Shown here: piece by piece, positions 1-29,849 of the stretch | Numbering within the stretch: the stretch's first letter is position 1 | Layout of the letters: each line of letters opens with the position of its first letter | From: Candidatus Omnitrophota bacterium | GTDB lineage: Bacteria; Omnitrophota; Gorgyraeia; Gygaellales; Profunditerraquicolaceae | Direction: 5' to 3' | Assembly (NCBI GenBank): GCA_022710715.1 | Contig: JAKLGJ010000003.1 | Span: 190,527 to 254,526, forward strand | Length of the DNA stretch: 64,000 nt | Program-made: the position numbers and the translations under genes | Notes under the pieces: model-generated | What the model saw: only the letters and a program-made list of their open reading frames with translations | Databases searched by the model: none | What the model was told of the DNA's origin: nothing

Positions 1-1778
1 CACGCCCGCGCTGATATACCCGGCGCTTTCCACGATCAGATCCTGACAATACCAGGCCGACTGGGCGCTCTCGAGTATATTAAAATTCCTCAACTCGCCG
101 TTAACCTGCACGGCAGTATCCCCGGCCTTGACCGTGCCATAGTTGTGCACGGTGCCGCCAATCACCCGTGTGCCCTCGCCGCTCATCTCAAGCAGCGAGC
201 CGGGAGCGTTGGCAACCGCAGCGTTCAACGCGCCGCCTCTGTAATAGAAGCGGTCGTAATTGTTAATCGTCCCCGCATTCAGCGTGCCGCCGCTCAAATC
301 GTACAAACCGCTGCTGGTTCCGTCGGGCGTTGCGGAAACCCATACGTTGCCGTTGACATTGACCTCGCCGCCGCTCTGGCGGAACTCGCCCCGGCCGCGG
401 TTGCCTACGACCAGATCACTATTCTCCACATGCAGTTGCCCGGTGCCCGATAACGTATACAGACCGACGCTGTTATCCTGACGGGCAAGCCACAAAGGAT
501 AATCAGTCATGATCACCGTGCCGCCGCTTTGAATAACCTCGCCTGTCCCCGCCCATTCGCCCAAAGCCATACCGTCGGCGCGGAACTCCCCGTCAGCCAT
601 CTCGAAAATGCCGTGGCCGGTCGACCCCGCTCCCAGATACACACCGCTATTCTCGGCGTTAAACTCGCCGCCGTCCTGATAAAAATATCCTTCGCCGTTG
701 GAACCAATGAAAACTTCCGACCGGTCGTCATTCAAATTCGTCGCCAGATACCCGTCGTACAAATAATACTCGCCCCGCGAACCCGCATCGGCGCCCAGGA
801 CCAGATCGCCATCCAGAAGATTATATCCGCCATCCTGCACAAAAGTCCCGTTGCCCTGAAAGCCTATGATCTCATTTCCGCCTATATACTGCTGCTGGCC
901 GTCATCGTTCAATAGCGCCTCGCCGAACTCATCCACCAGAAGCGCGGTCCGGCTGTTGAGAGATCCGCCGTACTGATAATACGCGCCGTGACTGCCGGCC
1001 ACGTCGCCGATCACCAGATCCGAGAAACTGCCCTCGCGGACTTCCCATCTTTCCTCATCTTCATTATACACCGCATTATCGCCGATGATCTCATGCATTC
1101 CGTCATTCTGAGAGAAAAACGCGCCCGGCGACCAGGTCCCTGCCGAATCTTCGACTTCAAACCCGGTTGATGAACTGGCGATCACCTCATGGCCCACAGT
1201 CAGGAACGCGTCTTCGCTCCAGGAATCCAACTCGTACGAACCATTGCTGTTGGACGCGACACCCAGTACCAACCCTGTGATCACTTTATTCGTCCCGCCA
1301 TACTGATACACACTGCCTGTGCCCTCGCTGCCGACCACCATCTCCCTGCTCTCCAGCTCGCCTGCATTCAAAGAATACGTCCCGAACGAACCATTCAAAT
1401 CCCCCAGACGCAGCTGATTGCCCACTGCAACCCGGCCGCCGCTCTGATCCACAAAACAATCCGTATCAAACCCGAAATACGCGTTCTGATGAACCGTCAA
1501 GTCGGCATTCGATTTAATATCCAGCTCCATGCCGTAATCAATTAACAGAGAATTCACATTCTGATTGGAATCTATCGCAACATAGCCCCAGAACGGGGAA
1601 CCCAGAATGAAAGCTTCGTCATCAGTGAACGGCACGCCGTTCGGATCCCAGTTGTCGGGATTTTCCCAATTGCTATCAGACCCATCCCCGCCGTCCCAGT
1701 AATAAGTCGTCTGCGCGAAAGCTGTGCACGCTATCAAAACTCCCATCAGCACCAGAAAAACTGTCTTTGAAAAACGCA
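1..1778 (-). CDS. Secreted repeat protein, 5' complete and 3' truncated by the window edge. Signal peptide MRFSKTVFLVLMGVLIACTAFAQ, then repeated G-x-(Y/F)-x-Q-x-GG units typical of autotransporter-associated (PATR-like) beta-strand repeats.
   Basis: Hand translation of the minus strand. ATG at 1776-1778 is preceded by GGAG, and the frame stays open to position 1. Absent from the ORF track because no stop lies inside the window. Plus-strand ORFs 145-1545 are antisense shadows of this gene. Confidence 0.6.
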
Positions 1779-2065
1779 TAGAAAACTCCTTTTTTAGCGG
1801 GTAAACAGAATCCTACACTTAATTGTAAGCATATTCCGTGCCAAAGATTAAAAAAAGTTCATACTAATTCACGCCGTAACCACGAGCTGCTCAATGCGTT
1901 AAGAATGCGCCTTCCAAGACCTTCTATGGCTGGAAGCCCGGTCCGATTCCATTGTTGCCGGCCTTAAACACAAACAGAGCGCCCGACCCCACCCGGCGCT
2001 CTATCACTATGCAGCATCAACCCTTTAGCGCATGATTAATATCAACATAAAATCAGCCCAAGCTG

Positions 2066-2146
2066 AAAAAAGGGGACAGGTCCACCCAAAACCCTCCGTC
2101 GAGAAATTTAGACAGATGTGTCCCCTTCTAAATTTGCTGTGTCCCC
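2066..2146 (+). repeat. REP-like element copy A: GGGGACAGGTCCACCC-N30-GACAGATGTGTCCCC-N14-GCTGTGTCCCC.
   Basis: Near-identical to copies at 2838, 3493 and 5320. Lies 5 nt after the RAYT stop. Confidence 0.85.
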
Positions 2147-2155
2147 TTTTTAGTT

Positions 2156-2821
2156 CTAGGGAACCCCACACACCATCTGATCCAGAGGAAGCTGTTTAAT
2201 CTTTTCTTTCATCCGTTCCACGAAATCCTCACTCCCTAATATCGTCCGGCGCGAGAAAGATTTCTGATTCATCACCCTGGAATCAAGCACAAAATCGCTG
2301 TAAGTCCTTTGCCGAGCCGCCGGATCGCTGCCAAGCCGCTCATACAACGGATCCATGCTCACCAAAGGATCCTTCTTCCCGGCAGCGTACACATTATAAC
2401 TGCTGAATCCGTATTCCTCGGGATAGGAAACCAACTCTCCGCGCACAGGGTTCAATTCCACATACTTGCCGCACTGCACCAGATAATTCTCCGAATCGAC
2501 AATGATACTCTTATACCGCCCCTGCCACAAATGCCCGATTAAACCGTAGCGCTTGCGAAAATACTGCATATAGGACAGGTTCACCTTCTGCATAAAAAGC
2601 GCGACATTCGACTCCATCTGCGGCCAAAGCAGCAAATGCACATGATTATTCATCAGGCAATAGTGCAGGATCTTGATAAAATTATTCGCCCTATGCTCCA
2701 GCAGCAATTTGTAATAATGCCGCTTATCCTCCCAGCAATGAAAAACGAACTGCTTGCCATTGCCCCGGCACATCACATGCAACCCCGCTCCAACCACGAT
2801 GATCCTGCGAATCCTCGGCAT
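2156..2821 (-). CDS. REP-associated tyrosine transposase (RAYT; IS200-like Y1 HUH transposase).
   Basis: HUH motif NHVHLLLW; catalytic Tyr region GHLWQGRYKS...ELNPVRGELV like E. coli RayT/YafM. Start moved to the internal ATG (MPRIRR) preceded by GAGGAGGAGG, because the ORF-track N-terminus is read through REP copy B. Confidence 0.8.
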   Translation of the reverse strand: MPRIRRIIVVGAGLHVMCRGNGKQFVFHCWEDKRHYYKLLLEHRANNFIKILHYCLMNNHVHLLLWPQMESNVALFMQKVNLSYMQYFRKRYGLIGHLWQGRYKSIIVDSENYLVQCGKYVELNPVRGELVSYPEEYGFSSYNVYAAGKKDPLVSMDPLYERLGSDPAARQRTYSDFVLDSRVMNQKSFSRRTILGSEDFVERMKEKIKQLPLDQMVCGVP

Positions 2822-2837
2822 CTGCTCCTCCTCCTCA

Positions 2838-2916
2838 CATAAGGGGACAGGTCCACCCAAAACGGCTCGTCGAGAATTTTGGACAGATGTGTCCCCTTCT
2901 AAATTTGCTGTGTCCC
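2838..2916 (+). repeat. REP-like element copy B, same orientation as copy A, between the RAYT start and the ORF6N-1 stop.
   Basis: Direct sequence identity to copy A over about 80 bp. Confidence 0.85.
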
Positions 2917-2932
2917 CTTTTCGAGGACGAGA

Positions 2933-3475
2933 TTAATCAGTCTTGAATCCAATCTGCGGCTTCGAAACCGGTGCCGACGATTTGGTGACAGGCTGCGCCG
3001 GCGCAAGCAATAATTGCTTGATAGCTTCGAAAATCGCATTGATCCGCTCATCGTGCTTATCCACTCGCCGCCCCAACGCTTCAAGCTTTTCCGCCAATTC
3101 CCGGTGAGTCAACAAGAGCTCGCGCAACTTCACAAACGCCCTCATAATAGCAATATTTACCTGAACAGCCCGCTCTGACCTCAAAACGCTTGAAAGCATC
3201 GCCACACCCTGTTCGGTAAAAACATACGGCAAGTGTCGCCTGCCGCCCCAACTTGACATCGCAAATTGCGATTTCAAATTTATTGCTTCTTCCTGGGTCA
3301 TCTGAAACATAAAATCATCCGGGAATCTATTACGATTCCTTTTAACCTGCTCATTCAACCGCATCGTTGCAACACCATACAACTGCGCCAGGTCCCGATC
3401 GATCAAAACCCGCTTACCCCGTACCACTAAAATTCTTGCTGCCACGGCTTCCACAGAAAATTTCCCTTCGTTCAT
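2933..3475 (-). CDS. ORF6N-domain (KilA-N-like, phage antirepressor-type DNA-binding) protein, paralog 1.
   Basis: MNEGKFSVEAVAARILVVRGKRVLIDRDLAQLYGV...RFPDDFMFQ...[46 protein letters not shown] plus a C-terminal coiled coil. Start trimmed to ATG 3475 because the first 27 aa of the track ORF translate REP copy C. Confidence 0.7.
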   Translation of the reverse strand: MNEGKFSVEAVAARILVVRGKRVLIDRDLAQLYGVATMRLNEQVKRNRNRFPDDFMFQMTQEEAINLKSQFAMSSWGGRRHLPYVFTEQGVAMLSSVLRSERAVQVNIAIMRAFVKLRELLLTHRELAEKLEALGRRVDKHDERINAIFEAIKQLLLAPAQPVTKSSAPVSKPQIGFKTD

Positions 3476-3492
3476 AGGCACACCTCCCTGGG

Positions 3493-3570
3493 CAAGGGGA
3501 CAGGTCCACCCTTTTGCGCTCGTCGATATTTTCGGACAGATGTGTCCCCTTTTCAATTTACTGTGTCCCC
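3493..3570 (+). repeat. REP-like element copy C.
   Basis: GGGGACAGGTCCACCC...GACAGATGTGTCCCC...CTGTGTCCCC. Confidence 0.85.
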
Positions 3571-3663
3571 TTTTACCCTAATAGACGCCATCGCCGCTCA
3601 AATCTAACAAAAATATTTTTAACCCAACACACTTTCAATAACCGCACACAACCACTCCCCCCT

Positions 3664-3744
3664 AAAAAAGGGGACACAGCATTTTCGAAAGGGGACACAT
3701 CTCCCCCTTTTTCTCGACGAGGGCTAAGGGGTGGACCTGTCCCC
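3664..3744 (-). repeat. REP-like element copy D, inverted relative to copy C with about 93 bp between them (REPIN-like inverted pair).
   Basis: GGGGACACAGC...GGGGACACATCT...GGGTGGACCTGTCCCC. Confidence 0.8.
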
Positions 3745-3751
3745 TTTTCCG

Positions 3752-3760
3752 TGGTATAAT
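3752..3760 (+). promoter_or_regulatory. Extended -10 promoter TGgTATAAT located 6 nt upstream of the xrtA ATG; predicts a leaderless transcript.
   Basis: TGGTATAAT at 3752-3760, ATG at 3767, no Shine-Dalgarno. Confidence 0.45.
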
Positions 3761-3766
3761 TACTGC

Positions 3767-4639
3767 ATGTTCAATTATCTGATCTGGGGATTAGTCGCCG
3801 CGCTTTATTCGCCGATCATCTACCAGCTTTACCGCAACCGCTGGGAAATGATCGACTACACCCACGCCTACTTCATCCTGCCGGTCTCTCTGTGGCTGAT
3901 CTGGCGCAAGCGCAAAGAACTGCGCCAAGCCGCCCGCGCAACCGCCGCAAGCCGCGCCGCCGCCCACGCCCGCACCCCCAAAAAGGCCGCGCGCTCCGCA
4001 TCCTGGGGTCTGGCAGCCCTCATCCTGGGCGTCCTGTTCTTCATCTTCGGCTGGCGCTGGGATTATCTGTTCATCTCCACCTTCTCGCTCATCCTCACCG
4101 GCTCCGGCCTGGTGCTTTATCTCTACGGCTCCAAAACCGCCAAACTGCTCAAGTTCCCCATTCTCTATCTTTTGCTCATGGTTCCGCCGCCTCTGGGCAT
4201 CCTGGACTCCATCACCCTGCCCATGCGTTACGGCATCTCCGCGGTCGCCGAATTCATCCTGCGCTCATTCCACGTGCCGGTAGTCCGCGACGGCCTGCTG
4301 CTCAACGTCGGCGGACAGGAAATATTCATGGGCCAGCCCTGCTCGGGATTCCGCTCCCTGATCACCCTGATCTCCCTGGGCCTGGCGTACGTGTACATCT
4401 GCAAATCCACGCGACGCACCAAAGCCATACTCCTGGCCTCGATCGTACCCCTGGCTTTAACCGGCAACCTTATCCGCGTGCTTTCGCTGTGCCTGGTCAC
4501 CTACCACTTCGGCCCGGAGATCGGCCAGGGCTTCTTCCACGATTTCAGCGGCATCCTCATGTTCATCGTGACCATTTCCGGCCTCATCGGTCTGGAAGCC
4601 TATTTAAACCGCCCGCGGGTCACGGAGGAGGAACGCTAG
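3767..4639 (+). CDS. xrtA: Exosortase (EpsH/XrtA family), polytopic membrane transpeptidase.
   Basis: WEMIDYTHAYFILPVSLWLIWRKR N-terminal motif; CSG active-site region PCSGFRSLITLISLGLAYVY; 8 predicted TM helices; followed directly by EpsI. Start set to ATG 3767 rather than GTG 3731, which lies in REP copy D. Confidence 0.75.
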   Translation: MFNYLIWGLVAALYSPIIYQLYRNRWEMIDYTHAYFILPVSLWLIWRKRKELRQAARATAASRAAAHARTPKKAARSASWGLAALILGVLFFIFGWRWDYLFISTFSLILTGSGLVLYLYGSKTAKLLKFPILYLLLMVPPPLGILDSITLPMRYGISAVAEFILRSFHVPVVRDGLLLNVGGQEIFMGQPCSGFRSLITLISLGLAYVYICKSTRRTKAILLASIVPLALTGNLIRVLSLCLVTYHFGPEIGQGFFHDFSGILMFIVTISGLIGLEAYLNRPRVTEEER

Positions 4640-5320
4640 ATGAAAAAAGCCGCCCCTGCCCGCGCCGCCGCCCCCGCCGCGCCCTTCAACCCCAGATACC
4701 TTATCGCCGCCATCCTCATCTGCGCGGCTATCGCAATCAGCTTCGCCATACCTAAACCCAAATACCAAAGCCTCAACGTCCTTAAACAGATCTCCATCCC
4801 GGTAAACTTCGGAGACTGGAAGGGCAACGACATCGGTCAGCAGCTCGACCTCAACGACGACCGCTACCGCTTCATCTCGGACATCTTCGCGCGCACCTAC
4901 ACCCGCGCAGACGGCGCGCAGCTCATGTTGCTGATCCTCGACGCAGGCAACTTCCACAATCCCAAAGTCTGCTTCGGCTCTTCCGGCTACAAAATCCGCG
5001 AGCTTCCCGACACCCGGATCAACGCCGGCAAACGCTCTTTTGAAACCACCACCCTGCTGATGACCAAAGATCCGGAATCCACCATGCTCATCTACTGGCT
5101 GTGCATCGATAAGAAAATAACTTCCTGGGCCGGCCAAAAAACCAAAGAACTCTGGTTCTCGCTCTTCAACAAAAAGAAAGCCGGACTCATGGTCCGGCTC
5201 GACGTTCCTGCTCATCCTCAAGCGCCCGAAGCCTCCGCGGCTTTAGCGCAGCAATTCGTTACTGAACTATCAACTCACCTTTCTGAAAAGGACCTGACTC
5301 TCATATTCGGCGCCCAGTAA
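4640..5320 (+). CDS. epsI: EpsI-family exosortase-associated protein.
   Basis: Unfused partner directly after the exosortase (stop/start overlap TAGATG); single N-terminal TM helix then a soluble domain, the EpsI architecture. Confidence 0.6.
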   Translation: MKKAAPARAAAPAAPFNPRYLIAAILICAAIAISFAIPKPKYQSLNVLKQISIPVNFGDWKGNDIGQQLDLNDDRYRFISDIFARTYTRADGAQLMLLILDAGNFHNPKVCFGSSGYKIRELPDTRINAGKRSFETTTLLMTKDPESTMLIYWLCIDKKITSWAGQKTKELWFSLFNKKKAGLMVRLDVPAHPQAPEASAALAQQFVTELSTHLSEKDLTLIFGAQ

Positions 5321-5396
5321 AGGGGACAGGTCCACCCAAAACCCTCCGTCGACAAAAACAGCCAGATGTGTCCCCTTTCAAATTTGCTATGTCCCC
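5320..5396 (+). repeat. REP-like element copy E, abutting the epsI stop codon.
   Basis: Identity to copies A-C. Confidence 0.85.
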
Positions 5397-5425
5397 TTTT
5401 CCTTTTCCAACTCACTCAACTCAAC

Positions 5426-5941
5426 TCAATTCACATCAAACCTCGGTTTGGGCGGCTCATCCGGAGGCGGCTCAATGAGTTTTTTGATCGTTGTGAAGAT
5501 CACCTGAATATCAGTTTCATGCATTTGATACTTCCGCTCTAATTCTTCAATTTTCTCCGATAACTCTTTGTGCGTTAACAACAGTTCTCGCAGCTTCACA
5601 AATGCCCGCATAATTGCTATATTTACCTGGACTGCACGTTCTGAACGCAGCACACTCGATAACATCGCCACACCTTCTTGAGTAAACACATACGGCAGGT
5701 ATCTGTGCCCACCCCAACTTGAGGTCACAAATTGTGACCTCAAGTCTACAACCTCTTCTCGGCTAAGTTGAAACATAAAATCTTCAGGAAACCTCTTAAG
5801 ATTCCTTCTAACGCCTTGAAGCAAAGCTTTCGTCTTCACACCATACAGCTCCGCCAAATCCCTATCCAGCATCACCTTCTTCCCTCGAATCAACAGAATC
5901 TTTGCAGCCACAACCTCCACCGAAATTTTCTCTTTTTTCAT
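5426..5941 (-). CDS. ORF6N-domain protein, paralog 2.
   Basis: [35 protein letters not shown]...[58 protein letters not shown] before ATG 5941. Confidence 0.7.
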
Positions 5942-6132
5942 CGCTCTCCCTCCCTTCATCACTAATAGACGCAGAGAGAAGCGAAATCTAACACAAATCT
6001 CCAGCAACTTATCTCCACCCACCTATAAAAACAAGTAGGACATGGGGACACGAACGAAAAGGAACCAGGTGCCGCGAGGTAACCCCAACAAGAAAAGCGC
6101 ATATTTCTATGCGCTTCCTTCGCCTCCTGATT

Positions 6133-6148
6133 CAAAAGGGGACACAGC
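6133..6148 (-). repeat. Truncated REP-like remnant (a single GGGGACACAGC arm) just 3' of the lipoprotein gene. A second GGGGACAC lies at 6044-6051.
   Basis: Matches the first arm of copies D, G and H only. Confidence 0.4.
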
Positions 6149-6158
6149 TTTTTTCCGC

Positions 6159-6350
6159 CTAATTGTCCAGATACTTGAACTTGCTGACTTTGCTCTGCAG
6201 GTTCGGCTGATGAATCTCTTCTTCGATCACCGTCTTGACGATCTTGCCTTCCGCATCCTTCTCCACCGTGACTTTCTTGTGATAGCCGGTTAACGTCGTG
6301 CACCCGGATAATAAAACCGCAACCAACACCACAACGATAGCCCTTAACAC
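6159..6350 (-). CDS. Small lipoprotein with lipobox LLSGC.
   Basis: Signal peptide plus lipobox; overlaps the GT26 gene by 7 nt (operonic). Confidence 0.45.
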   Translation of the reverse strand: MLRAIVVVLVAVLLSGCTTLTGYHKKVTVEKDAEGKIVKTVIEEEIHQPNLQSKVSKFKYLDN

Positions 6351-7855
6351 TTGAGCACCCCCTTTCGCATTTTATACCGCAACACCATCCCAAACAACTT
6401 CGCCCCATCAATGAAATACCGTTTAAACATCCTGCGCGGCTCCATGAACACGCGCCATAACCACTCCAGATGAATAGCAATCATTATTTTAGGCGCCCGC
6501 CGCACATATCCGGACAGAAAATCAAGATACGCTCCCACGCCCATGCATAACCTCGGCTTTAATGCCGCTCGATGCTTATGAATCCACTTCTCCTGTAAAG
6601 GAGCACCCATGCCTACCAGCAGAATATCCGCCCCGGAATTATTGACCTGTTCCACCACATCGTCATCATTCGCAAAAAATCCGTTGCACACTCCCGCAAC
6701 CTTTAATCCCGGGAACCGATTAGTTGCCATTTCAGCGGCCTTCCGAGCAACCCCCTCCTTGCCCCCCAATAAAAACACCGCCAATCCCCTGTTTGCGGCA
6801 ACACGCAAAACAGCAGGAGAAAACTCCGTCCCGTTGCAATTATCCAGCATCCTGATCCCCAGTAAAGAAGAAACCACCCCCAATCCGATCCCATCGGGCA
6901 ACACCAAATCTTTCCCGTTCAGAATGCCCCGATATGCTTCATCTTTCTGCGCTTTATATAAACAATCCGCATTGAGGAAGAAAATCGTTCTTTTGGCAGA
7001 CGACTTGTTCTCGCCATTCCCAAGTATATCTTCAGCAATGTTTACGGCTTCTTTAAAATAAAGGTTATCGTAAGACACATTAAGCACTAAAGCTCGATCT
7101 CGCTGTTGCACTCCCACAGAGTGCCTTTTCCCCATAAAGTAACTCTTGATCAACAATCCCAACAAAAACAGGCCGCTTTTCGCATATCTTCCCAGCATCA
7201 GTTGAGGATCCTGTGCAATCCTCCAGGTCCATTCCAGATTCAATTTCCGCAGCAACACCGGCGCCCGCTTCAGCCTACCGCCGGGATAATCCATCCATCC
7301 CCCGACGCCCAAACAAAGCCGGGGATTCAACTGATCTCGATGCTTATTGATCCACTTCTCCTGTAAAGGCGCGCCCATGCCCACAATCAGGATATCCGCA
7401 CCCGACCGATTAATCTCTTCGATAACAGCCGCATCATCGCTAAAATATCCGGGATGCGCACCAACGATCTTTAATCCGGGATAAGCCTTAACCAGATTGT
7501 CGCCGGCTTTCTTCACTATTTCTTCCTTGCTCCCCAATAAAAACACCTTATTTCCGCCGAAAGCCGCAGTGACTAAAACCACCGGCGTCAAATCAGACCC
7601 ATTGCAATTTCCACGCGATTCAGTTCCCAACGACGCGCTCAAAAGCCGCAGATAAACACCATCCGGCAAAACCAGTTCAGCCGAATTCAGGATCTTAGCA
7701 TATTCCTCATCGTGCAACGCTTTGTACAGATAATCCGCATTGAGAAAAAACACCGACTTCTTGCTTTTTCCCTGCAAATAATCCTTAACCGTATTCACGG
7801 CTTCCTGGAAAGTCAGATTATTGTAGTTGATCCCAAAAACGTCGGTTTTGTGCAT
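6344..7855 (-). CDS. Tandem-duplicated WecB/TagA/CpsF-family (GT26) glycosyltransferase, two complete domains in one polypeptide.
   Basis: Two about 245-aa halves that each carry FFLNAD..LY, VLPDG, LLG.KEE, GADIL.VGMGAPLQEKWI.KHR..L.PRLC.GVG and LEW.WR motifs. Confidence 0.75.
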   Translation of the reverse strand: MHKTDVFGINYNNLTFQEAVNTVKDYLQGKSKKSVFFLNADYLYKALHDEEYAKILNSAELVLPDGVYLRLLSASLGTESRGNCNGSDLTPVVLVTAAFGGNKVFLLGSKEEIVKKAGDNLVKAYPGLKIVGAHPGYFSDDAAVIEEINRSGADILIVGMGAPLQEKWINKHRDQLNPRLCLGVGGWMDYPGGRLKRAPVLLRKLNLEWTWRIAQDPQLMLGRYAKSGLFLLGLLIKSYFMGKRHSVGVQQRDRALVLNVSYDNLYFKEAVNIAEDILGNGENKSSAKRTIFFLNADCLYKAQKDEAYRGILNGKDLVLPDGIGLGVVSSLLGIRMLDNCNGTEFSPAVLRVAANRGLAVFLLGGKEGVARKAAEMATNRFPGLKVAGVCNGFFANDDDVVEQVNNSGADILLVGMGAPLQEKWIHKHRAALKPRLCMGVGAYLDFLSGYVRRAPKIMIAIHLEWLWRVFMEPRRMFKRYFIDGAKLFGMVLRYKMRKGVLKC

Positions 7856-7858
7856 AGC

Positions 7859-8623
7859 TTAAATTGAGTCGAATATACTCCAGCAATCCAAAGCTCCGTT
7901 AACGATCTTCTTAAAACTCTCCAATGAATCATCACGCTCTATCTTAGTGCGTTTCAAATCAAACAACTCGCAGCCCGGATAATTTATTCCATTGATCGCG
8001 CTGAATGCGCATTTATATCCTGCTTCCTGCACGATTTGCCGGGACAGTTGGTTGTAATGCCTTCGCAAACCATACGGATAAGCAAAGAATTCGATAGATT
8101 CGGATAAAACAGCTTCCAGATCAGCCTTGCAACCGACAATCTCTTCTTTCATCTGCTCCAATGGCGCCCTAGACAGCAAACAATGCGTGCGGGTATGGCC
8201 GCCGAACTCAATCCCGGCCGCACGCATCTCTTTTACCTGGTCTTTGGTCACAATTCCCTTATCTGCGGTAGTCAAAAAAACACATCCTGGCACATTGTTC
8301 TTCTTTAACAAGGGAAAAGCATTATAGTAAATACACTCGCGCCCGTCATCCATGCTCACCGCAATTACCGTGTTTTTCAATTCCTTCTGCCCGGTCAAAA
8401 ACTCATACGCCTGGCGCAAAGAAACAATCTCGAAATTATCTTTCAGATACTTCAGCTGATCTTCGAACATGCCCGTAGAAACGCTATATATGTTCGAAGC
8501 AACGTCCTCCACGTCATGATACATCAACACGCGCACGCCCGGCTGTGTCAGCCTACTCTTGTCAATTTTGCCCCAAGCAGCGCACCTGCGCCTTAACCAA
8601 ACCTTGGCTTTTGTTTTTAACAT
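7859..8623 (-). CDS. Polysaccharide deacetylase (CE4 / NodB-like).
   Basis: SMDDG...HTRTHCLL motifs. Confidence 0.6.
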   Translation of the reverse strand: MLKTKAKVWLRRRCAAWGKIDKSRLTQPGVRVLMYHDVEDVASNIYSVSTGMFEDQLKYLKDNFEIVSLRQAYEFLTGQKELKNTVIAVSMDDGRECIYYNAFPLLKKNNVPGCVFLTTADKGIVTKDQVKEMRAAGIEFGGHTRTHCLLSRAPLEQMKEEIVGCKADLEAVLSESIEFFAYPYGLRRHYNQLSRQIVQEAGYKCAFSAINGINYPGCELFDLKRTKIERDDSLESFKKIVNGALDCWSIFDSI

Positions 8624-8637
8624 ATTACCCGCGAATG

Positions 8638-8646
8638 TGATATAAT
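8638..8646 (+). promoter_or_regulatory. Extended -10 TGaTATAAT. Would place the TSS at or near the second ATG (8654), i.e. a leaderless mRNA for the secreted hydrolase.
   Basis: TGATATAAT at 8638-8646 overlapping the first ATG (8645). Confidence 0.35.
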
Positions 8647-10933
8647 GATTCCCATGAAGAAATTCATCTTCCTATTATTAATCATTATACCCCTATTCTG
8701 CCCCTCCATACAAGCCCAAACCCAAGAAAATGAAGATGGTGAGTGGTATCCCTTCTATTTTCCGGAGAAACTCGATCCCGACTCTCCCATGAACATCGGT
8801 AAGCTGGTTTTAGACGCCCCTGCCGGAAAACACGGTTTCTGCAAAGTCAAAGACGGCCATTTCTATTTTGAGGACGGAACAAGAGCGAAATTCTGGGGCA
8901 CTAATCTTTGTTTCAACGCCTGTTTTCCCACCAAGGAACAAGCAGAAATGTTGGCCACCCGCATTGCCTACTTCGGCTTTAATGCTGTCCGTCTGCATCA
9001 TATGGATTTCTATTTCGAGCCCAAAGGAATCTTTGAAGACGTTTGCCCGGCCTACAAAGACCCGCAGATGAAAAGAACTGGAGTTTTGAGCAAAAAACAA
9101 CTCGACAAGCTGGATTACCTGATTTACCAATTAAAAATTAGAGGCATCTACATAGATATGAATTTGCTTGTGGCTCGTCATTTCACGGAAGCGGACGGAG
9201 TCAAATTTGCAAAAGAACTGGGTATGGCGGCAAAACCGGTTTCCATGTTTGATCCCAAACTTATTGAACTGCAGAAACAGTACGCTAAAGACCTACTCAC
9301 GCATTATAACCCTTACACAAAACTACGTTACTGCGACGATCCGGTAATCGCACTTATTGAAATTACCAATGAGAACTCAATTATTGGGTCCTGGCAAGGG
9401 AATAATCTAAACGGAACCCTCTTGGGTCTAAAAACCAAGGGGATTCCCGATTATTACTCCCAGCAGCTTGATATCAGCTGGAACAAATGGTTGGAGAAAA
9501 AATACTTAACAACTGAGCATACTATTGCCGCCTGGGAGGATACGTCCACCCATCCCGCCCAACTACAAATGATTTTTCTGCCTTCACTGGATCAATGGAA
9601 AACGGAACAACACAGTACAGCTAAACTATCTAAATCTGTAACTTCAGAAGGTGTAACAATTAAGGTAAAAACTATCACAAATACCCCTTGGCATCTTCAG
9701 TTTAAATCACACATTGATATTACTAAAGATAAAAACTACATATTAAACTTTACCGGATACAGTTCTAAACCAACAACCGCCGGTTTGATTTGCCAACAAA
9801 CATCTCCGCCATGGGATAATGTAGGATTGGCTGAAAGTATTATTTTCACCACAACCCCACAGGATTTTGCCATACCCTTCACAGCAACTCAGAGCTCAAC
9901 AAAAGCAAAACTGGCTTTTCTCATCGGCTACGACACTTCGACAATCTATTTATCCAATATCACTCTGACAAGTGCAAACAATTTGCCATTGAAATCGGAA
10001 TGCGAACCTACCGATCACTTTAACTTTCCAAGACCTCTCTACAAATTGCGATTTTTTCATAATAAAAAAATCATCAAAGACATTGCTTCTTTCTATGCTG
10101 ATCTAACAAAAGAGTACATCGACCAAATGTTATCCACACTACGGACTGACATAGGTATTAAAGTGCCAATCACAGGCATCGGGGGCAACATTCATGAAGA
10201 AAACATTCCCGCAATGCAAAACTGCGACTTCACTGATCATCACACATATTGGGACCATCCCAAGTTTCCACACAAACCTTGGGACAGGAATGACTTTGTT
10301 ATCGAAAACAAATCAATGCTTCAAAATCCTTCATTGGGCATGATAGGTTCTATAGATAAATACCACTTCGATAAAACTAAACCATATACCATAACTGAGT
10401 GGAACCATTGCTATCCCAACAAATTTGCTTACGAATCCCCTATCCTGATAGCACTCCACGCAAAACAAAAAGAATGCGACGCATTATTTCAATTCGCATT
10501 CAGTCACGGCTGGGAAATAAACTTCAGACTAGATACCATTCAAAGCTATTTCGATATTCTTTCCAATGCGCAACAATTACTACTTTGCGGTATGGGCAGC
10601 TTCATCCACCTATCACAAGATACAGCAGACCACTCACTTAATAATGGCATCTTGCGGTTCAAATCATCCGGCATCGAGGGATACTGCGGGTCTATTGCCA
10701 ACACCCCGCTGTACTTAAATGCCCAACCAATAATTTCACGGGACAACGGCGCGATTATTATTTTAACTAACAGTCAACAGTCAACCGATGCTTTATTCTC
10801 AGTCGGCGAGATTAAAAATTCGAACAGCGGCTGGCGCAATAATAAATTCATCTGGGGGGCAAGACCAACACTAATGAAACGCATCAAAACAAAGCAAACA
10901 GCGGAAAATTCAGCAAAGACACAACTACCTTGA
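8645..10933 (+). CDS. Secreted glycoside hydrolase, GH5-like TIM barrel plus C-terminal beta-rich domains.
   Basis: Signal peptide MKKFIFLLLIIIPLFCPSIQA; RLHHMD and IEITNENS (NE catalytic-acid-type motif). Sole plus-strand gene of the glycan island. Start may be 8654. Confidence 0.5.
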   Translation: MIPMKKFIFLLLIIIPLFCPSIQAQTQENEDGEWYPFYFPEKLDPDSPMNIGKLVLDAPAGKHGFCKVKDGHFYFEDGTRAKFWGTNLCFNACFPTKEQAEMLATRIAYFGFNAVRLHHMDFYFEPKGIFEDVCPAYKDPQMKRTGVLSKKQLDKLDYLIYQLKIRGIYIDMNLLVARHFTEADGVKFAKELGMAAKPVSMFDPKLIELQKQYAKDLLTHYNPYTKLRYCDDPVIALIEITNENSIIGSWQGNNLNGTLLGLKTKGIPDYYSQQLDISWNKWLEKKYLTTEHTIAAWEDTSTHPAQLQMIFLPSLDQWKTEQHSTAKLSKSVTSEGVTIKVKTITNTPWHLQFKSHIDITKDKNYILNFTGYSSKPTTAGLICQQTSPPWDNVGLAESIIFTTTPQDFAIPFTATQSSTKAKLAFLIGYDTSTIYLSNITLTSANNLPLKSECEPTDHFNFPRPLYKLRFFHNKKIIKDIASFYADLTKEYIDQMLSTLRTDIGIKVPITGIGGNIHEENIPAMQNCDFTDHHTYWDHPKFPHKPWDRNDFVIENKSMLQNPSLGMIGSIDKYHFDKTKPYTITEWNHCYPNKFAYESPILIALHAKQKECDALFQFAFSHGWEINFRLDTIQSYFDILSNAQQLLLCGMGSFIHLSQDTADHSLNNGILRFKSSGIEGYCGSIANTPLYLNAQPIISRDNGAIIILTNSQQSTDALFSVGEIKNSNSGWRNNKFIWGARPTLMKRIKTKQTAENSAKTQLP

Positions 10934-10939
10934 TATCAA

Positions 10940-11875
10940 TCAGCCATTTTTTAACAAAAATGCCGTTTGAGTCCACAAATTACCTTTTGCGCTCAATTTT
11001 CGATATCTAGCATACGCATTACCACTAACCCTCGGTTTTTTGTTAAAAATCATTCCAAACCGCCTAAAAGATAGCAAAAGAACAAACACCATCTTCAAGA
11101 AACAACGATGTCGGATCCCCTTCACCAAATAAACAGGCGTTCTAACACAAGTTTCTCTTACCGCTCCCCAGAAAGGGAAATATCTCCAGGCGACCCATAA
11201 GCTATTACGTAACCGTCGACACTCGTGTTCAGAGTTAAAGATTCTTTTTTCAAGTGAAATACGGTGGAAAACTTTAATTTCCGGACAATACAATATTCCA
11301 AATCCGGCGTTTAACGCTTTAAGGCTCAACTCAGATTCCTCCCAACTGAAGAACAGATCATCCCAATAAAATCCAGCCTGTTCAAAAACTTCGCATCTAA
11401 TCGCATGTCCACAACCGCAGAATGTATATGTTGAAAACTCCTCATCCTGCTTTTCCATAAAGCTTTTCTGATATACCCACGAACCCATGTCTAGTTCTTT
11501 AGTATGCGAATTGAGAATCTTAAATCCGATTATCCCAATTTCAGGATTAGCTTTGAATTTACCAACTATTTTGCTCAAAGAACCGTCTTCAAAACTAGCA
11601 TCATTATCCAGGAATACCAAGAACCGCCCCCGAGCATTAGCAACACCGATATTGCGACCTCCCGGAACTCCCATGTTTTTATGCAAACAGATCAACTTGA
11701 CTCCTTGGGGTACAAAATCATGCTCCAACATCTCAATAGTGCCATCAGTAGAACCTTGATCAACAACAATTACTTCATAATCATTAAAATCCTGTTTAAA
11801 GAGGTCATTTAAGGTCAAAGCAATATCATGCTTTCTGTTCCAACTAAGAATAATAACACTAATCAATTTCGACAT
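10940..11875 (-). CDS. Family 2 glycosyltransferase.
   Basis: SVIILSWNR...VVDQGSTDGT...DNDA motifs; start at MSKLIS. Confidence 0.7.
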   Translation of the reverse strand: MSKLISVIILSWNRKHDIALTLNDLFKQDFNDYEVIVVDQGSTDGTIEMLEHDFVPQGVKLICLHKNMGVPGGRNIGVANARGRFLVFLDNDASFEDGSLSKIVGKFKANPEIGIIGFKILNSHTKELDMGSWVYQKSFMEKQDEEFSTYTFCGCGHAIRCEVFEQAGFYWDDLFFSWEESELSLKALNAGFGILYCPEIKVFHRISLEKRIFNSEHECRRLRNSLWVAWRYFPFWGAVRETCVRTPVYLVKGIRHRCFLKMVFVLLLSFRRFGMIFNKKPRVSGNAYARYRKLSAKGNLWTQTAFLLKNG

Positions 11876-12815
11876 TCTCTTTAGTCCCCTGGATCCACCC
11901 CACAAAGAAACCTAATAACGCTGCCCAATCCCTTACAAGAACAACAATCGGCAATAAAAAATAAGCCTGGGGTATACTTTTGATTTCGACAAACCATTTC
12001 CAATGGTTTTTAACAGTTAATCCAATCCACAAAATAAAAACCACACATCCACCCCCACCCCAAATAATGGTATTAAAAATAAAGGATAAAGTACAAAAAA
12101 GCAGAATAGCAAAATAAAGAGCCAATTTTCTTAGATGAAAGATTAAATCGACTTTAACTTGTCCTTTCCCTTTTGCATACTGATAATATTGTTTAAAAAA
12201 AGCACCTATTGTTGAACGAGGTCGCCAATAAATTTTAGCTTTTTCATTTATTACTGTCTTAAAACCGGCTTTTTCAATTTTTTTAATAAACAGATAATCC
12301 TCAGCTGTTCGCAATGTTTCTGGGTACCCCCCCACCCTCTCCCACACATACTTTTTAAAAGCCATACACGCAACATACGGCCACAATTGGATTGGATAAA
12401 ATACAGCAACTGAACATTTCTCGAAAATTGTTTTGCCATCAGGCAAACGAATTCCATATACAACATCAACAGACGGATCTTCAAAAAAAGGCCTAACCAT
12501 CTCTTCAACAAAAAAATTATCAAAAGTGCACCCTGCATCAGTTGAAACAATGAGTTCACAACGAGCGGAATCAATAGCCACATTGCGTCCACGTCCAGGC
12601 AACGCACAGCTTACGGAAAGCAATTTGACAGGCAAGGAATCCTTGTATTCATTAATAATACTCATCGTATTATCGCGAGATCCTCCATCAACAATAACAA
12701 TTTCATTAATCAATAAGGATTGCGATTTCAATCTTTCCAACAGATCTCTCGCAACCTTTTCTTCATTCTTAATTGGTATCACAACTGCTACTAAACTTTC
12801 TTTAAAGTGTTTCAT
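11859..12815 (-). CDS. Family 2 glycosyltransferase with a C-terminal transmembrane extension.
   Basis: VVIPIKNEE...IVDGGSRDNT...STDAG motifs; hydrophobic C-terminus. Confidence 0.65.
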   Translation of the reverse strand: MKHFKESLVAVVIPIKNEEKVARDLLERLKSQSLLINEIVIVDGGSRDNTMSIINEYKDSLPVKLLSVSCALPGRGRNVAIDSARCELIVSTDAGCTFDNFFVEEMVRPFFEDPSVDVVYGIRLPDGKTIFEKCSVAVFYPIQLWPYVACMAFKKYVWERVGGYPETLRTAEDYLFIKKIEKAGFKTVINEKAKIYWRPRSTIGAFFKQYYQYAKGKGQVKVDLIFHLRKLALYFAILLFCTLSFIFNTIIWGGGGCVVFILWIGLTVKNHWKWFVEIKSIPQAYFLLPIVVLVRDWAALLGFFVGWIQGTKENVEID

Positions 12816-14136
12816 TGTGAATCCTTTTTGAAGATACAACACAACTATTTGTTTGGCATTTCTCAGCTAGCGCCACAATAACAATAAAATACGTCAATGT
12901 TGAAGCACTGCGAGATAGATTATCGGAGAAACTTACAAGAAGATAAAGACACGAAAGTATTGTTACCGTCAAGGAGAATTGTCGAACAATATCATCAGAA
13001 CTATTCCTGAAGACCTTGTAATTTCCAATAGCAAGAGAAATATAAATTAATATATACAATATGCAACCGGGAAGGCCAGTTTCCACAAGTAAGCGAACAT
13101 AATCATTATGGGCATAAACTGATTTCATCTCGGGAAACATGCCTAACCCGACTCCCATAACAGGGTGCTCGTAAAAAAGCGGTAAACCTTCATTCCAAGT
13201 CTTTACTCTCCAAGTCCAAGAATCAGTATAATAGCCATGAGTTCTACCATGCCCAACATCTGCAAATCGCTGAATAATAAGCGGAGAGAACAAAAGAATA
13301 ATTAATATTAACGCTCCAAGAATTTTGAATCGATATTCGCGCACTAAAACAGCAAGAATGGCACACCCAAGAATTGCTGCTAGCCAGGCAGCCCGAGTAA
13401 ATGTCAACAGGAGAAAAATAGAATAGATAAGTAAAAGAATTAAATTAAACGCGCTATTAATTTTAAATTTGTTATAAACCAGATTAACGATTAAAACAAT
13501 CATAATAGTTAATAAAAAGAAGGCAAACATATTTGGATGCACAAAAGTACCATAAATTCTTTTAAAACCAGCATCTACAATACCAACATCCTTCCCGATC
13601 TGCCAGATAGAAAAAAAGATAGGTAAGATTGTTGCTCCTACAAAACTAATAAATATCTTTCTCAATTCACTTTTATCAAATAAATGAAAAGAAATCAACC
13701 CGATCATAAGCAAACCAACAAAACGAAGAAGGTCTATAAAACTTATTACAGGCTTGATCGAAAAGATCGAAGAAAAAGAACAGAAAGCAATAAAGCAAAT
13801 TAAGAGTCTAAAACTCCTGATCTTGAAAATATTTATTTTCTTAAACAACAGGAAAAATATCGAAACGATAATCACTGCTACAGTCATATATGAAGCGAGA
13901 TTCTCTGCGCCAACACCAAAACTTATTCCCGACTTCGAGAAAACATCAAGAAAACTTCTTATGAAAAGATAATACAGCAATCCCAATTTGAGGTTTAAGA
14001 ATAACAACGCAATAAAACCTATAATAAAAAAAGAACTGATAAGTACAACAAAATTAAGCTCATTAAACAACATCAAAACAGAAAAAAAGAGAAAAAGAGA
14101 AACAGACAAAACAACCAAACTTAATGCTCTATGCAT
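12802..14136 (-). CDS. Wzy-type O-antigen polymerase / O-antigen-ligase-like membrane protein.
   Basis: Polytopic; Wzy_C-like motif AHNDYVRLLVETGLPG. Confidence 0.6.
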   Translation of the reverse strand: MHRALSLVVLSVSLFLFFSVLMLFNELNFVVLISSFFIIGFIALLFLNLKLGLLYYLFIRSFLDVFSKSGISFGVGAENLASYMTVAVIIVSIFFLLFKKINIFKIRSFRLLICFIAFCSFSSIFSIKPVISFIDLLRFVGLLMIGLISFHLFDKSELRKIFISFVGATILPIFFSIWQIGKDVGIVDAGFKRIYGTFVHPNMFAFFLLTIMIVLIVNLVYNKFKINSAFNLILLLIYSIFLLLTFTRAAWLAAILGCAILAVLVREYRFKILGALILIILLFSPLIIQRFADVGHGRTHGYYTDSWTWRVKTWNEGLPLFYEHPVMGVGLGMFPEMKSVYAHNDYVRLLVETGLPGCILYILIYISLAIGNYKVFRNSSDDIVRQFSLTVTILSCLYLLVSFSDNLSRSASTLTYFIVIVALAEKCQTNSCVVSSKRIHNETL

Positions 14137-14169
14137 AAATTGCCTTTCTGATCAAAATTAATTTATAGA

Positions 14170-15393
14170 TTAATTACTTAATAATTCCTGAAGCAATTTG
14201 CCGCTCTTGAGAGATTCTTTTTTAAAATTATCAACTCGTTCTCTTAAATATTCAGATATTGAACTTTGCTGGTTCCAAAGCTCCAATATTTTATCGTTAA
14301 CATTTTTCAATTGGAACTCGGCGAGATTTATATAGTAATTCAGAGAATTAAAAACATCGCTATTAATGCCAACAGATTTCAAACTATACCCCAAACTCAA
14401 AGTAGGAACACAAGTAGAAAAAGCTGCAATCGTTGAGTGTGTACGCGTTCCGACGAAAAGTTTGCATTTACTTATAACGTACTTTACCTCATCAGCGGCA
14501 AGATCTTCATCAATTAGAATTACCCTAGGATCCTTCTGAAAAAATCCTTTTATTGCTCTCAAACACGTTAAATCATTATCATGGTCACTAGTCACATGCG
14601 GTATTAATAAGACATTACACGGGATTTTACTCAAGACAAATTGAACAATTTCAATACAATATTTGACCCAAATAGCGAAATTGCCCTTAGCAGCATACTT
14701 AGCAACCAGAGGGCTAAAATTAAAACCAACAAAATGACCTGTCAAGTCTATATTCATTCTGGATAAATCAGGCATTCGCGGCTCCATCATAAACGCAGGA
14801 TCAGTGACTTTATAAACGTTTTCCTTAAGCCCTAAAGAATGGCAATAATCAATCGTTTTGCTTTCACGAGCAAAAATAATTGTACGTCTCAATTGCTCAG
14901 CAATGAACCTTTCATACACGGGATCCTGCGTAAAAGGACCAATTGAAGCACCCCAAATAATTATCGGTTTCCTTTTTCGCAAAACAAAATCATTCAGTCT
15001 AAGAAAGAAATCTGGTCTTCCATAATCCAACGAAAAATTATCTCCCCCAATGGCTAAAACTGCTTGGCTTAAAGCAAGGTCATTACTTATTGTTCTAAAA
15101 ATAACATCTTCATAAAGAGATTCTGACACTCTTTCCAATATTCGCTCAGCAGCCCATGGAAAAGAAAACCTTCTTGGCACCAAATATTTCGCGTGCTTAA
15201 TTTTACCATTGTTTTCACGAACCACTTGTTTCCGATATTGCGCGTTACTAATGAAATTACTATAAACGAGAAATTGAGGATCCTTATAAAAATGAGACAG
15301 AATCGCGTAAGTGCCCTTCACAATCGCTTCACATCCGCGATTTTCATAAGGTCCATTGCCCACAAGAACAAATCGAGTATTAGGGTCAGGCAT
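14170..15393 (-). CDS. Polysaccharide pyruvyl transferase (CsaB/WcaK family).
   Basis: PF04230-like layout; overlaps the downstream FeS gene by 8 nt. Confidence 0.55.
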   Translation of the reverse strand: MPDPNTRFVLVGNGPYENRGCEAIVKGTYAILSHFYKDPQFLVYSNFISNAQYRKQVVRENNGKIKHAKYLVPRRFSFPWAAERILERVSESLYEDVIFRTISNDLALSQAVLAIGGDNFSLDYGRPDFFLRLNDFVLRKRKPIIIWGASIGPFTQDPVYERFIAEQLRRTIIFARESKTIDYCHSLGLKENVYKVTDPAFMMEPRMPDLSRMNIDLTGHFVGFNFSPLVAKYAAKGNFAIWVKYCIEIVQFVLSKIPCNVLLIPHVTSDHDNDLTCLRAIKGFFQKDPRVILIDEDLAADEVKYVISKCKLFVGTRTHSTIAAFSTCVPTLSLGYSLKSVGINSDVFNSLNYYINLAEFQLKNVNDKILELWNQQSSISEYLRERVDNFKKESLKSGKLLQELLSN

Positions 15394-16594
15394 GCAACCT
15401 CACTCCCACAAAAAGCTTAACCAATCGAATAAATTCTTTAACCACAACTTTACAAGACGGCGCACCCAAAACGGACATTCCTGTAACACCAGGGCAATTA
15501 CCAATCAAATTAGCATGTAAAGGATAACAAATTCGCTTGGTTCTGGTATTGATGGTAAAGGCATTCAGAATTGCTTGTAAGCGAAGGTTGTCAGCATGGA
15601 TTTTCTTCGCGTCCACTAAACCATCAACTATCTGCTTACCCTTATCTGAACGGATTATCATTACGTTTGTTCCAATTGTATCCCCTTTTTGCTCGGGTAA
15701 CCAAGCATCACCAAAGGAGATGTCCGAGAAATCGCCGAAGAAATCCTGACAACAATAGCAGGCTAAAGGAGTAAAATATCCGGATCCAAAACATGTTGCC
15801 CACGCATCAGTAGACAATTCACTGATTTCATGCTGATTGTCAACTTTAATCTTAGTTTTCCCGGGCCACCCATCTCCTCTCCATTGAAAATAAGTAACCT
15901 GTGAAGCACTCACTTTATGCTTTTTTAAATAGCGGCTCAAAGCTCTATAAGAAGGCGCTTGATTACAAAACAAAGCAAGAATTAAGACTATAGACTCTTT
16001 TAAAACTTTGTCATGCGACATTGCCTTACGCAATGCAATTGCATGACACGGTAAACATACGACAGCTACCTTACGAGGATTCCTTTTAAGTTCAATTATT
16101 GCTTTATCCAGCGACACAGGACAATACTTTGAACCTTTTGCATTAAAAATTTCCTCTTCGGTCGAAGCAATAAAAGCTTCCGCCCGGACCTCTCTTCCGT
16201 ATTTCAAGCGGGTAACGACCACACCATCAACAACTTTATTTCTTAACAATTCAATCGACATTGTCGTTACCAGCCCACCGGAAGAACAACTAAACCTCAA
16301 ATCACCATTACCAGAATAACCTTTATAAATAGCTTGGAAATTGCCTATTAAGGCATTTTCAGGAGCTTGACCAAAAATCGAAATATTAAGTTCTTTATGA
16401 TCAAAACCAAATCCCGGACAGACTTGCTGGCACTTGCCGCAAAATATACATTTCGTCGTATCTAAAACTGGATAATTAATGCCTTCGGAGGTAACACGAA
16501 TAGTAATTGCTTGTGTCGGACAAATACCCGCACATACTCCGCAGCCGCAACACATAGCTTTAGATAATCTATCAAAAACAGAATTGGTTTTCAT
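15386..16594 (-). CDS. Coenzyme F420 hydrogenase/dehydrogenase beta-subunit-like 2x[4Fe-4S] protein.
   Basis: CGCGVCAGICP and CIFCGKCQQVCP ferredoxin motifs plus a FrhB-like C-terminal domain. A common partner of pyruvyl transferases in CPS/EPS loci. Confidence 0.6.
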   Translation of the reverse strand: MKTNSVFDRLSKAMCCGCGVCAGICPTQAITIRVTSEGINYPVLDTTKCIFCGKCQQVCPGFGFDHKELNISIFGQAPENALIGNFQAIYKGYSGNGDLRFSCSSGGLVTTMSIELLRNKVVDGVVVTRLKYGREVRAEAFIASTEEEIFNAKGSKYCPVSLDKAIIELKRNPRKVAVVCLPCHAIALRKAMSHDKVLKESIVLILALFCNQAPSYRALSRYLKKHKVSASQVTYFQWRGDGWPGKTKIKVDNQHEISELSTDAWATCFGSGYFTPLACYCCQDFFGDFSDISFGDAWLPEQKGDTIGTNVMIIRSDKGKQIVDGLVDAKKIHADNLRLQAILNAFTINTRTKRICYPLHANLIGNCPGVTGMSVLGAPSCKVVVKEFIRLVKLFVGVRLHA

Positions 16595-17832: not shown

Positions 17833-17850
17833 TGATTATACCCTTATTCC

Positions 17851-22592: not shown

Positions 22593-22628
22593 GCATGTAT
22601 TATAACATGCATACAATTGTATATACAA
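22593..22628 (-). promoter_or_regulatory. Putative sigma70 promoter and operator. Inverted repeat GCATGT-N6-ACATGC whose loop is TATAAT on the minus strand, plus the perfect 12-bp palindrome TTGTATATACAA (a -35-like TTGTAT 18 bp upstream).
   Basis: Direct reading of the sequence upstream of the RHH gene. Confidence 0.4.
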
Positions 22629-22673: not shown

Positions 22674-22754
22674 AAAAAAGGGGACACAGCAATTTGCAAA
22701 GGGGACACATCTGTCCGATTTTCTCGACGAGCCGTTTTGGGTGGACCTGTCCCC
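22674..22754 (-). repeat. REP-like element copy G, immediately 3' of the sugar transferase gene. Followed by a perfect 21-bp tandem duplication (22747-22788) spanning the REP end and the gene's last codons.
   Basis: GGGGACACAGCAATTTGCAAAGGGGACACATCTGTCCG...GGGTGGACCTGTCCCC; CTGTCCCCTATTTCGCGCCGA repeated twice. Confidence 0.8.
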
Positions 22755-27266: not shown

Positions 27267-27291
27267 AGTGGTTTAGATTGTACCACAAATT

Positions 27292-29842: not shown

Positions 29843-29849
29843 GATCTTA

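Follow-up and report, generated by a model that had tools for sequence, protein, structure and literature searches.

Two genes of an exopolysaccharide (EPS) locus in a Candidatus Omnitrophota genome, encoding an exosortase and a secreted glycoside hydrolase (GH)-like protein of the GH5 type, each begin a few nucleotides (nt) behind a near-consensus extended -10 promoter element, which raises the question of whether their mRNAs carry any 5' untranslated region (UTR). We analysed this in a 64,000-nt stretch of contig JAKLGJ010000003.1 (positions 190,527 to 254,526; hereafter the window). As predicted from the DNA, a leaderless, extended -10 layout is shared by both genes and conserved in their orthologues, and we put the probability that both are truly expressed as leaderless mRNAs at about 75%.

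Promoter geometry and start codons

The extended -10 element of the exosortase-EpsI unit, TGGTATAAT (3752–3760, + strand), is kept in orthologues and is separated by the 6-nt spacer TACTGC from the ATG (3767–3769) of the exosortase coding sequence (3767–4639, +; 290 amino acids (aa) plus stop). That of the monocistronic GH5-like gene (8654–10933, +; 759 aa), TGATATAAT (8638–8646, +), is kept in 10/10 orthologues, with 7 nt (GATTCCC) before the ATG at 8654–8656. Since the hexamer ends 6–7 nt before the start codon in each case, transcription should begin at the A of AUG, that is, at the predicted starts A3767 and A8654. A promoter scan of positions 1–12000 gave the GH5-like site the top rank (TTAACA-18-TATAAT, 11/12, with TG), its -35 hexamer (8617–8622, +) matching at 5/6 positions, and scored the exosortase site 10/12 with TG (TGGACC-17-TATAAT), the -35-like hexamer (3732–3737, +) matching at 4/6. 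Searching other genes for the motif followed by N6–7 and ATG, as a preliminary description of the two genes had proposed, returned a third case, TGGTATAAT at 33114–33122 (−), 6 nt before the ATG (33107) of a gene here called p550, with a T-rich spacer and no -35 match. All three sites have TG at -15/-14 and a hexamer with A2 and T6 (TGGTATAAT, TGATATAAT and TGGTATAAT, respectively), at the leaderless spacing of N6 (3767), N7 (8654) and N6 (33107). For the exosortase and GH5-like genes, the motif positions and spacings previously described proved exact to the base. The hexamer ends are likewise consistent with the earlier placing of both start codons at the predicted transcription start, and the reported lack of a Shine-Dalgarno (SD) sequence was borne out, no GGAG/GAGG/AGGA-type motif occurring in the 18 nt before either ATG.

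The absence of an SD at these genes is informative because about half of the window genes carry a clear one. When positions −18 to −4 relative to the start codon (15 nt) were scanned for SD-like 5-mers, 29 of the 54 gene starts considered had one, compared with 5.3% of random positions, and many of these are the full GGAGG. No such 5-mer was found in this interval before the exosortase, GH5-like and p550 genes, all of which start with ATG.

Homologue N-termini and NCBI annotation support these ATGs as the probable true starts. For the exosortase, the sole alternative in-frame start is GTG 3731, which would add 12 residues; it is not supported, as these residues are without counterpart in 30 aligned homologues. 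Eight of the 30 start with MFNY or MLNY exactly at the position of ATG 3767, and the residues that follow this Met are conserved (W19, L25, Y26, P28, L33, Y34, R37 and W38, in the numbering of the first sequence of the alignment) and therefore translated. The GH5-like gene also has a single in-frame alternative, ATG 8645, which falls within the -10 hexamer. The identical protein at NCBI, a hypothetical protein of Candidatus Omnitrophota, has 759 aa and starts from 8654. A signal-peptide pattern (a Met closely followed by one to three basic residues, then a hydrophobic run) begins right at this Met in nine of ten aligned GH-family proteins, the window's included; the protein of locus L005 is the exception. 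For p550, an in-frame TAG six codons upstream of the ATG leaves no earlier start possible, and the NCBI annotation, filed under Candidatus Omnitrophota, has the same 550-aa start.

The pattern TGNTATAAT occurs at eight sites in the 64 kb of the window versus 0.89 expected, and none of 100 dinucleotide-preserving shuffles gave eight. Five of the eight lie in sense orientation upstream of genes, and three are followed, after N6–7, by the ATG of an open reading frame (ORF) of at least 100 aa (3767, 8654 and 33107). Among spacings of 0–20 nt, such an ATG follows TGNTATAAT only at 6 and 7 nt; for plain TATAAT, an ORF-opening ATG follows at 6–7 nt and in one case at 2 nt. The neighbouring spacings were empty both in the window and in the Omnitrophota loci described below, where 14 of 27 TGNTATAAT sites had an ORF-opening ATG at N6–7. 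Two TGNTATAAT promoters in the window (22599–22607 and 53600–53608) have leaders of ~50–80 nt. Perfect TGNTATAAT sequences also lie antisense within minus-strand genes at 25176–25184, 27948–27956 and 34528–34536 (all +), which may be antisense promoters or the chance share of the eight.

Conservation and specificity of the layout

We examined 80 exosortase-orthologue loci from GTDB species representatives, mostly of Omnitrophota, Nitrospirota/Thermodesulfovibrionia and anammox Planctomycetota, and four loci obtained via GH-family homologues (all numbered with the prefix L). Counts for the exosortase are based on the 57 orthologues with an ATG near the aligned N-terminus, and all ATGs in the same DNA served as background. 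A -10 hexamer matching at 5/6 positions or better was found at N5–8 in 30/57 orthologues (background 2.8%), a perfect TATAAT in 17/57 (0.32%), and a hexamer of at least 5/6 together with TG in 19/57 (0.28%). The typical Omnitrophota exosortase promoter reads TG(C/G/T)TATAAT-N6/7-ATG with a variable -35 region. Nitrospirota orthologues have TTGCC(A/C)-N17/18-TAT(T/C)AT-N5-7-ATG, also written with TATTAT as the -10; this conserved promoter, located in the ~60 nt upstream of the exosortase ATG, is complete, with its -35 kept across species, in eight Nitrospirota/Thermodesulfovibrionia loci (L009, L011, L015, L039, L043, L046, L051 and L058). Judged by its elements, the Nitrospirota arrangement is a complete, correctly spaced putative σ70 promoter that ends at the ATG. 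By inspection, orthologues whose only nearby start is GTG or TTG (e.g. L025, L050 and L056) have no adjacent -10.

For the GH family, TGnTATAAT or TGnTATACT at N6–8 was present in 10/10 members (the window, L005, L007, L013, L032, L067 and L082–L085; L005, with its unusual N-terminus, is the least certain), and the hexamer is a perfect TATAAT in about eight of the ten. Synteny is kept as well, the exosortase-EpsI pair being followed by the GH-like gene and that in turn by a convergent EPS operon. Large secreted proteins encoded with the same layout near exosortases in L036/L037 (680 aa) and L066 (711 aa) were considered as distant members of the GH family and rejected, as blastp gave no significant similarity. 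In L083, a PLD-like gene (4461–5954, −) and the GH-family gene (from 6001, +) are divergent, and their 46-nt intergenic region holds a TG-extended -10 at N6/N7 for each gene, i.e. two back-to-back leaderless promoters.

The layout appears specific to the two families rather than a genome default, given its rate of only ~2% in other genes. Among 239 non-overlapping ORFs of at least 150 aa from the Omnitrophota loci and the window, the strict layout occurs in 27, of which 22 are exosortase or GH-family genes; the other five encode an EpsI, a 711-aa protein, a PLD-like protein, the pyruvate/2-oxoacid:ferredoxin oxidoreductase (PFOR) of the window and p550. In the Omnitrophota loci this amounts to ~73% of exosortases and 100% of the GH family versus ~5/215 (~2%) other long ORFs. 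With the gene calls of the source records, covering 68 genes in five loci, perfect TATAAT at N6–7 was found only on the exosortase (3/4) and GH genes (4/5), the fifth GH gene having TG-TATACT at N8; a 5/6 hexamer stands before four of 59 other genes.

Within the window, the leaderless layout is a minority form, found on about 3–6 of roughly 55 genes. A possible fourth leaderless start belongs to the PFOR gene (28121–29842, −), where TATAAT (29849–29854, −) lies N6 before ATG 29842 and the 573-aa form has its POR domain from residue 13 onward; the case is ambiguous because the preceding stop codon is only 8 nt away from the hexamer and there is a GAGG 12 nt upstream. Looser versions precede the peptide deformylase gene def (TATAGT-N8-ATG; 62848–62864, −; ATG 62850) and a response-regulator/histidine-kinase hybrid (TGGTACAAT-N10-ATG; 27264–27285, −; ATG 27266). 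An Rfam scan of the whole window returned no riboswitch or leader RNA, and no operator was found. The earlier proposal of an identical architecture on two EPS-related genes thus gains in one respect and loses in another: the layout is conserved for exactly these two families across many genomes and so is not a coincidence, but it is not strictly confined to EPS genes, since p550 has the perfect form and PFOR may share the layout.

The last observation bears on whether the leaderless layout is simply the default promoter form of the genome or phylum, with nothing specific to EPS genes. A third identical case on a gene without a demonstrated EPS role (ATG 33107), the looser cases at PFOR, def (TATAGT-N8) and the response-regulator/kinase hybrid (TGGTACAAT-N10), and the genome-wide leaderless genes of some phyla (PMC3160421, PMC12340547) would agree with this. 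We nevertheless regard it as unlikely, because about half of the window genes are SD-led, two TGNTATAAT promoters have 50–80-nt leaders, and the layout rate among other long ORFs is far below that of the two families. It is still less probable that the TATAAT-like sequence is not the promoter at all, and that transcripts starting further upstream load ribosomes at the A/T-rich stretch, which would be unstructured and act through S1 instead of an SD. Initiation without an SD is known for A/U-rich leaders, and several genes of the low-GC EPS island have no SD, but the conserved element is a specific TGnTATAAT rather than general A/T richness, its distance to the ATG is fixed at 6–7 nt, the Nitrospirota orthologues add a -35 box at 17–18-nt spacing, and the window sites have -35 matches of 4/6 and 5/6. 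Moreover, the 30 nt between the GH5-like ATG and that of the divergent gene leave hardly any space for a further promoter. That A/T-rich intergenic DNA merely resembles a promoter by chance was ruled out by the statistics and by cross-species conservation: TANNNT is common in low-GC sequence and the GH5-like gene sits at the edge of a 35–44% GC island, but no shuffle reached the eight sites observed where 0.89 were expected, and perfect TATAAT at N5–8, with a background of 0.3%, stands before 17/57 exosortases and ~8/10 GH-family genes.

Several points count against expression as leaderless mRNAs and keep our estimate below certainty. In-frame alternatives exist for both genes (GTG 3731 and ATG 8645), the JGI gene call took ATG 8645 for the GH5-like gene (762 aa), and an additional upstream promoter may give a leadered transcript. 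The orthologues of Brocadia and several other lineages are without the layout, Brocadia having a TATAAT ~45 nt upstream, so that the layout is not needed for protein function. The genomes of the orthologues are phylogenetically related and their counts are hence not fully independent, and the loci were chosen for containing an exosortase, which makes the sample of other genes small (~215 ORFs).

Gene products and repeats around the two promoters

The 290-aa exosortase matches PF09721 (202.7 bits; cut-off 25.7) and TIGR02602 (156.2 bits; cut-off 105.55), and its C204, R208 and H270 are invariant across 31 sequences. It falls below the cut-off of every named subtype, the nearest models being XrtV (191/313 bits) and XrtB (186.2/275 bits). 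The label xrtA given to it in the preliminary description was not upheld, as TIGR03109 scores 138.1 bits against a curated cut-off of 208. The ATG of the EpsI-family gene (4640–5320, +; 226 aa; TIGR02914 at 70 bits with a cut-off of 42.8, and PF11984) comes directly after the exosortase stop codon, and a strong SD, GGAGGAGG (4624–4631, +), within the 3' end of the exosortase gene indicates that this second cistron is SD-led.

The GH5-like protein matched nothing in Pfam, PF00150 (Cellulase) included, up to E = 1, and nothing in NCBIfam up to E = 0.001. A phmmer search of the PDB returned a CBM4 (E 3e-6) and GH5 mannanases at E 2.7e-4 and weaker. Foldseek with an AF2 model built from 34 homologues (pLDDT 88) likewise gave CBM4, and GH5 mannanases at E ~1e-8 over only ~200–230 aligned columns, the alignment being short because the CBM4 is inserted in the barrel. 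N239-E240 and E582-W583 are invariant in the family; N239-E240 and E582 are candidates for the Asn-Glu acid/base motif and the second catalytic Glu of clan GH-A. On the predicted structure, the protein is a putative (β/α)8 GH5-mannanase-like barrel (clan GH-A-like) broken by the CBM4, with an additional C-terminal β domain. The designation GH5-like is therefore reasonable for the predicted fold and the putative catalytic motif, but not for membership of the GH5 sequence family, given the lack of a Pfam or NCBIfam match.

The surrounding genes are of EPS type, encoding WecG-type and GT2 glycosyltransferases, a polysaccharide deacetylase, Wzy_C, a pyruvyl transferase and a flippase. The WecG/TagA-family glycosyltransferase (6344–7855, −; 503 aa) is a tandem fusion of two WecG domains, seen as two Pfam stretches. 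The deacetylase ATG (8623, −) and the GH5-like ATG (8654) are 30 nt apart, and a minus-strand TATAAT at 8689–8684 lies within the coding region of the GH signal peptide; this hexamer could drive the divergent deacetylase-WecG operon, giving overlapping divergent transcripts. GC skew is -0.17 to -0.30 across 1–18000, irrespective of gene strand, and ~0 elsewhere, and GC content is 35–44% at 8–18 kb versus ~57% in the rest of the window. This compositionally distinct block suggests that the EPS island is foreign DNA. A giant ORF of >3600 aa with faint HEAT-repeat matches lies just upstream, to the left of the window (L001, 1–5224).

The third gene with the perfect layout, p550 (31455–33107, −), encodes a polytopic membrane protein of 550 aa, which the homologue search characterised as an orphan distantly related to DUF6080: only p550 itself and seven distant DUF6080 proteins were returned. 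Neither Pfam (up to E = 1) nor NCBIfam assigned it to a family. UbiA-family and VTT/DedA genes come after it.

A copy of a dispersed repeat resembling repetitive extragenic palindromic (REP)/REPIN elements, with GGGGACA/TGTCCCC arms (families D2 and I1–I4 of the repeat search), occupies 3661–3748 (+; 88 nt). Between this copy and the TG of the exosortase promoter there are 3 nt, and the -35-like TGGACC falls inside the copy. Five full copies lie at 2.0–5.4 kb (2063–2150, 2834–2921, 3487–3574, 3661–3748, which is inverted, and 5313–5400), along with a partial one at 6130–6153. The element is ~85 nt long, with three GGGGACA/TGTCCCC arms and a predicted fold of -17 kcal/mol (z = -2.4); its 15-mer GGTGGACCTGTCCCC occurs exactly seven times in the window, including 22740–22754 and 34272–34286. 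Copies flank a gene for an IS200/Y1 transposase (2156–2821, −) resembling REP-associated tyrosine transposases (RAYT) as well as two ORF6N paralogues, and inverted copies bracket the exosortase-EpsI pair. A reading of the GGGGACA repeats as a dedicated operator was not supported, as they form a dispersed REP-like family also present at the 3' ends of unrelated genes (22740 and 34272). In L083, whose exosortase protein is 62% identical, the same 15-mer GGTGGACCTGTCCCC lies at the same 7-nt distance from the exosortase -10. Given this position, the REP-like element may have a role in the promoter, or it may simply be co-inherited. The two ORF6N-domain (KilA-N-like) genes (2933–3556, − and 5426–6022, −) lie on either side of exosortase-EpsI, are 74% identical in DNA over 279 nt and each have a repeat element upstream; they possibly encode a regulator or a mobile-element protein.

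Predicted expression mode and known systems

It is proposed that the exosortase-EpsI unit and the monocistronic GH5-like gene have separate near-consensus TGnTATAAT promoters, at which the housekeeping σ70-type RNA polymerase would recognise TG and TATAAT with little or no need for a -35. The first transcribed base would be the A of AUG, 7 nt past the hexamer, and the resulting 5'-pppAUG mRNAs would have neither 5' UTR nor SD, so that the ribosome and initiator tRNA would bind the 5'-terminal AUG directly, as in the known leaderless pathway. For EpsI, encoded on the same transcript, GGAGGAGG would provide a conventional SD-led start, so that a separate output would be possible for each cistron. 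The data show the geometry, its statistical excess, the support for the start codons and the family-specific conservation; where transcription really begins, how ribosomes are recruited and what regulation it might serve are what we infer from this arrangement. Its purpose is probably to provide a compact signal of ~16 nt for expression independent of the host, which would set the output of the two genes independently of SD strength and accompany them when the EPS island moves between genomes.

A further-reaching proposal is that the exosortase and GH5-like genes make up a small leaderless regulon, which at least two phyla have retained for a function of the leaderless state as such, and whose ~16-nt promoter-plus-AUG module moves with the genes in horizontal transfer of EPS islands, here beside REP/RAYT elements. 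We regard this as doubtful. If such a regulon existed, synthesis might be coupled to the ribosome or initiation-factor state of attached or starved cells, or, alternatively, a low exosortase:EpsI ratio might be fixed.

Omnitrophota are uncultured, often ultra-small and possibly host-dependent bacteria, and what is known in detail of leaderless initiation comes from a few cultured phyla. The present data indicate that Omnitrophota genomes combine SD-led genes with a predicted leaderless minority, a mix that affects start-codon calling, JGI and NCBI disagreeing on both genes. They also suggest that a single gene family, and not just a genome, can stay leaderless over long periods. As a simple and portable signal, TGnTATAAT-N6-7-ATG could serve to express Omnitrophota genes in other hosts.

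Classic single-gene leaderless mRNAs, such as those of phage lambda cI from PRM and of Tn1721 tetR, likewise have a promoter that abuts the AUG and start at a 5'-terminal AUG. Both encode regulators on mobile elements in an SD-dominated host; here, by contrast, the products are a sorting enzyme of the membrane that resembles transpeptidases and a secreted protein of glycoside-hydrolase-like type. The arrangement also resembles the XrtA-EpsI type of PEP-CTERM/exosortase EPS loci, with an exosortase followed by EpsI among glycosyltransferase, Wzy, flippase and pyruvyl-transferase genes. Unlike in that type, the exosortase, whose family is centred on Omnitrophota, Nitrospirota and anammox Planctomycetota, scores below XrtA and every other named subtype, and EpsI is a separate gene, resembling the B and V types. 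As in extended -10 σ70 promoters, TG stands one base upstream of a consensus TATAAT and the -35 is weak or absent (none at p550, 4/6 at the exosortase, variable in the Omnitrophota orthologues). Unlike typical members of this class, the GH5-like promoter also has a good -35 (TTAACA, 5/6), and the promoters of the Nitrospirota orthologues combine a conventional -35 with a -10 that has no TG at the canonical position.

The leaderless signature described for bacteria is a TANNNT placed ~12 nt ahead of the start codon, to which some lineages add a strong TG (Zheng et al. 2011, PMC3160421). Leaderless genes with an ORF-adjacent -10 (Pribnow) box have been catalogued in Actinobacteria, Deinococcus-Thermus, Aquificae and some Firmicutes (PMC3160421; Cortes et al. 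2013, PMC3898074; PMC12340547), the TG extension has been noted at leaderless genes in Lactococcus (PMC3160421), and experiments in Deinococcus demonstrated that the ORF-adjacent -10 is the promoter, with spacing requirements (PMC12340547). The genes in the window are like the catalogued ones in their TANNNT/TATAAT ~6–7 nt before the AUG, in the lack of an SD and in the start expected at the A of AUG. They differ in that leaderless expression would here be a minority mode, in a genome with about half of its genes SD-led, and, unlike in genome-wide leaderless systems, is tied to two gene families and kept across Omnitrophota and Nitrospirota. In the literature searched, no paper links leaderless expression to Omnitrophota or to exosortases. 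The mechanism, an extended -10 σ70 promoter with a start at the A of AUG, is already known, and its understanding is unchanged by these findings; what is modestly new is that two syntenic gene families keep a predicted leaderless state across phyla, while about half of the genes in these genomes have an SD.

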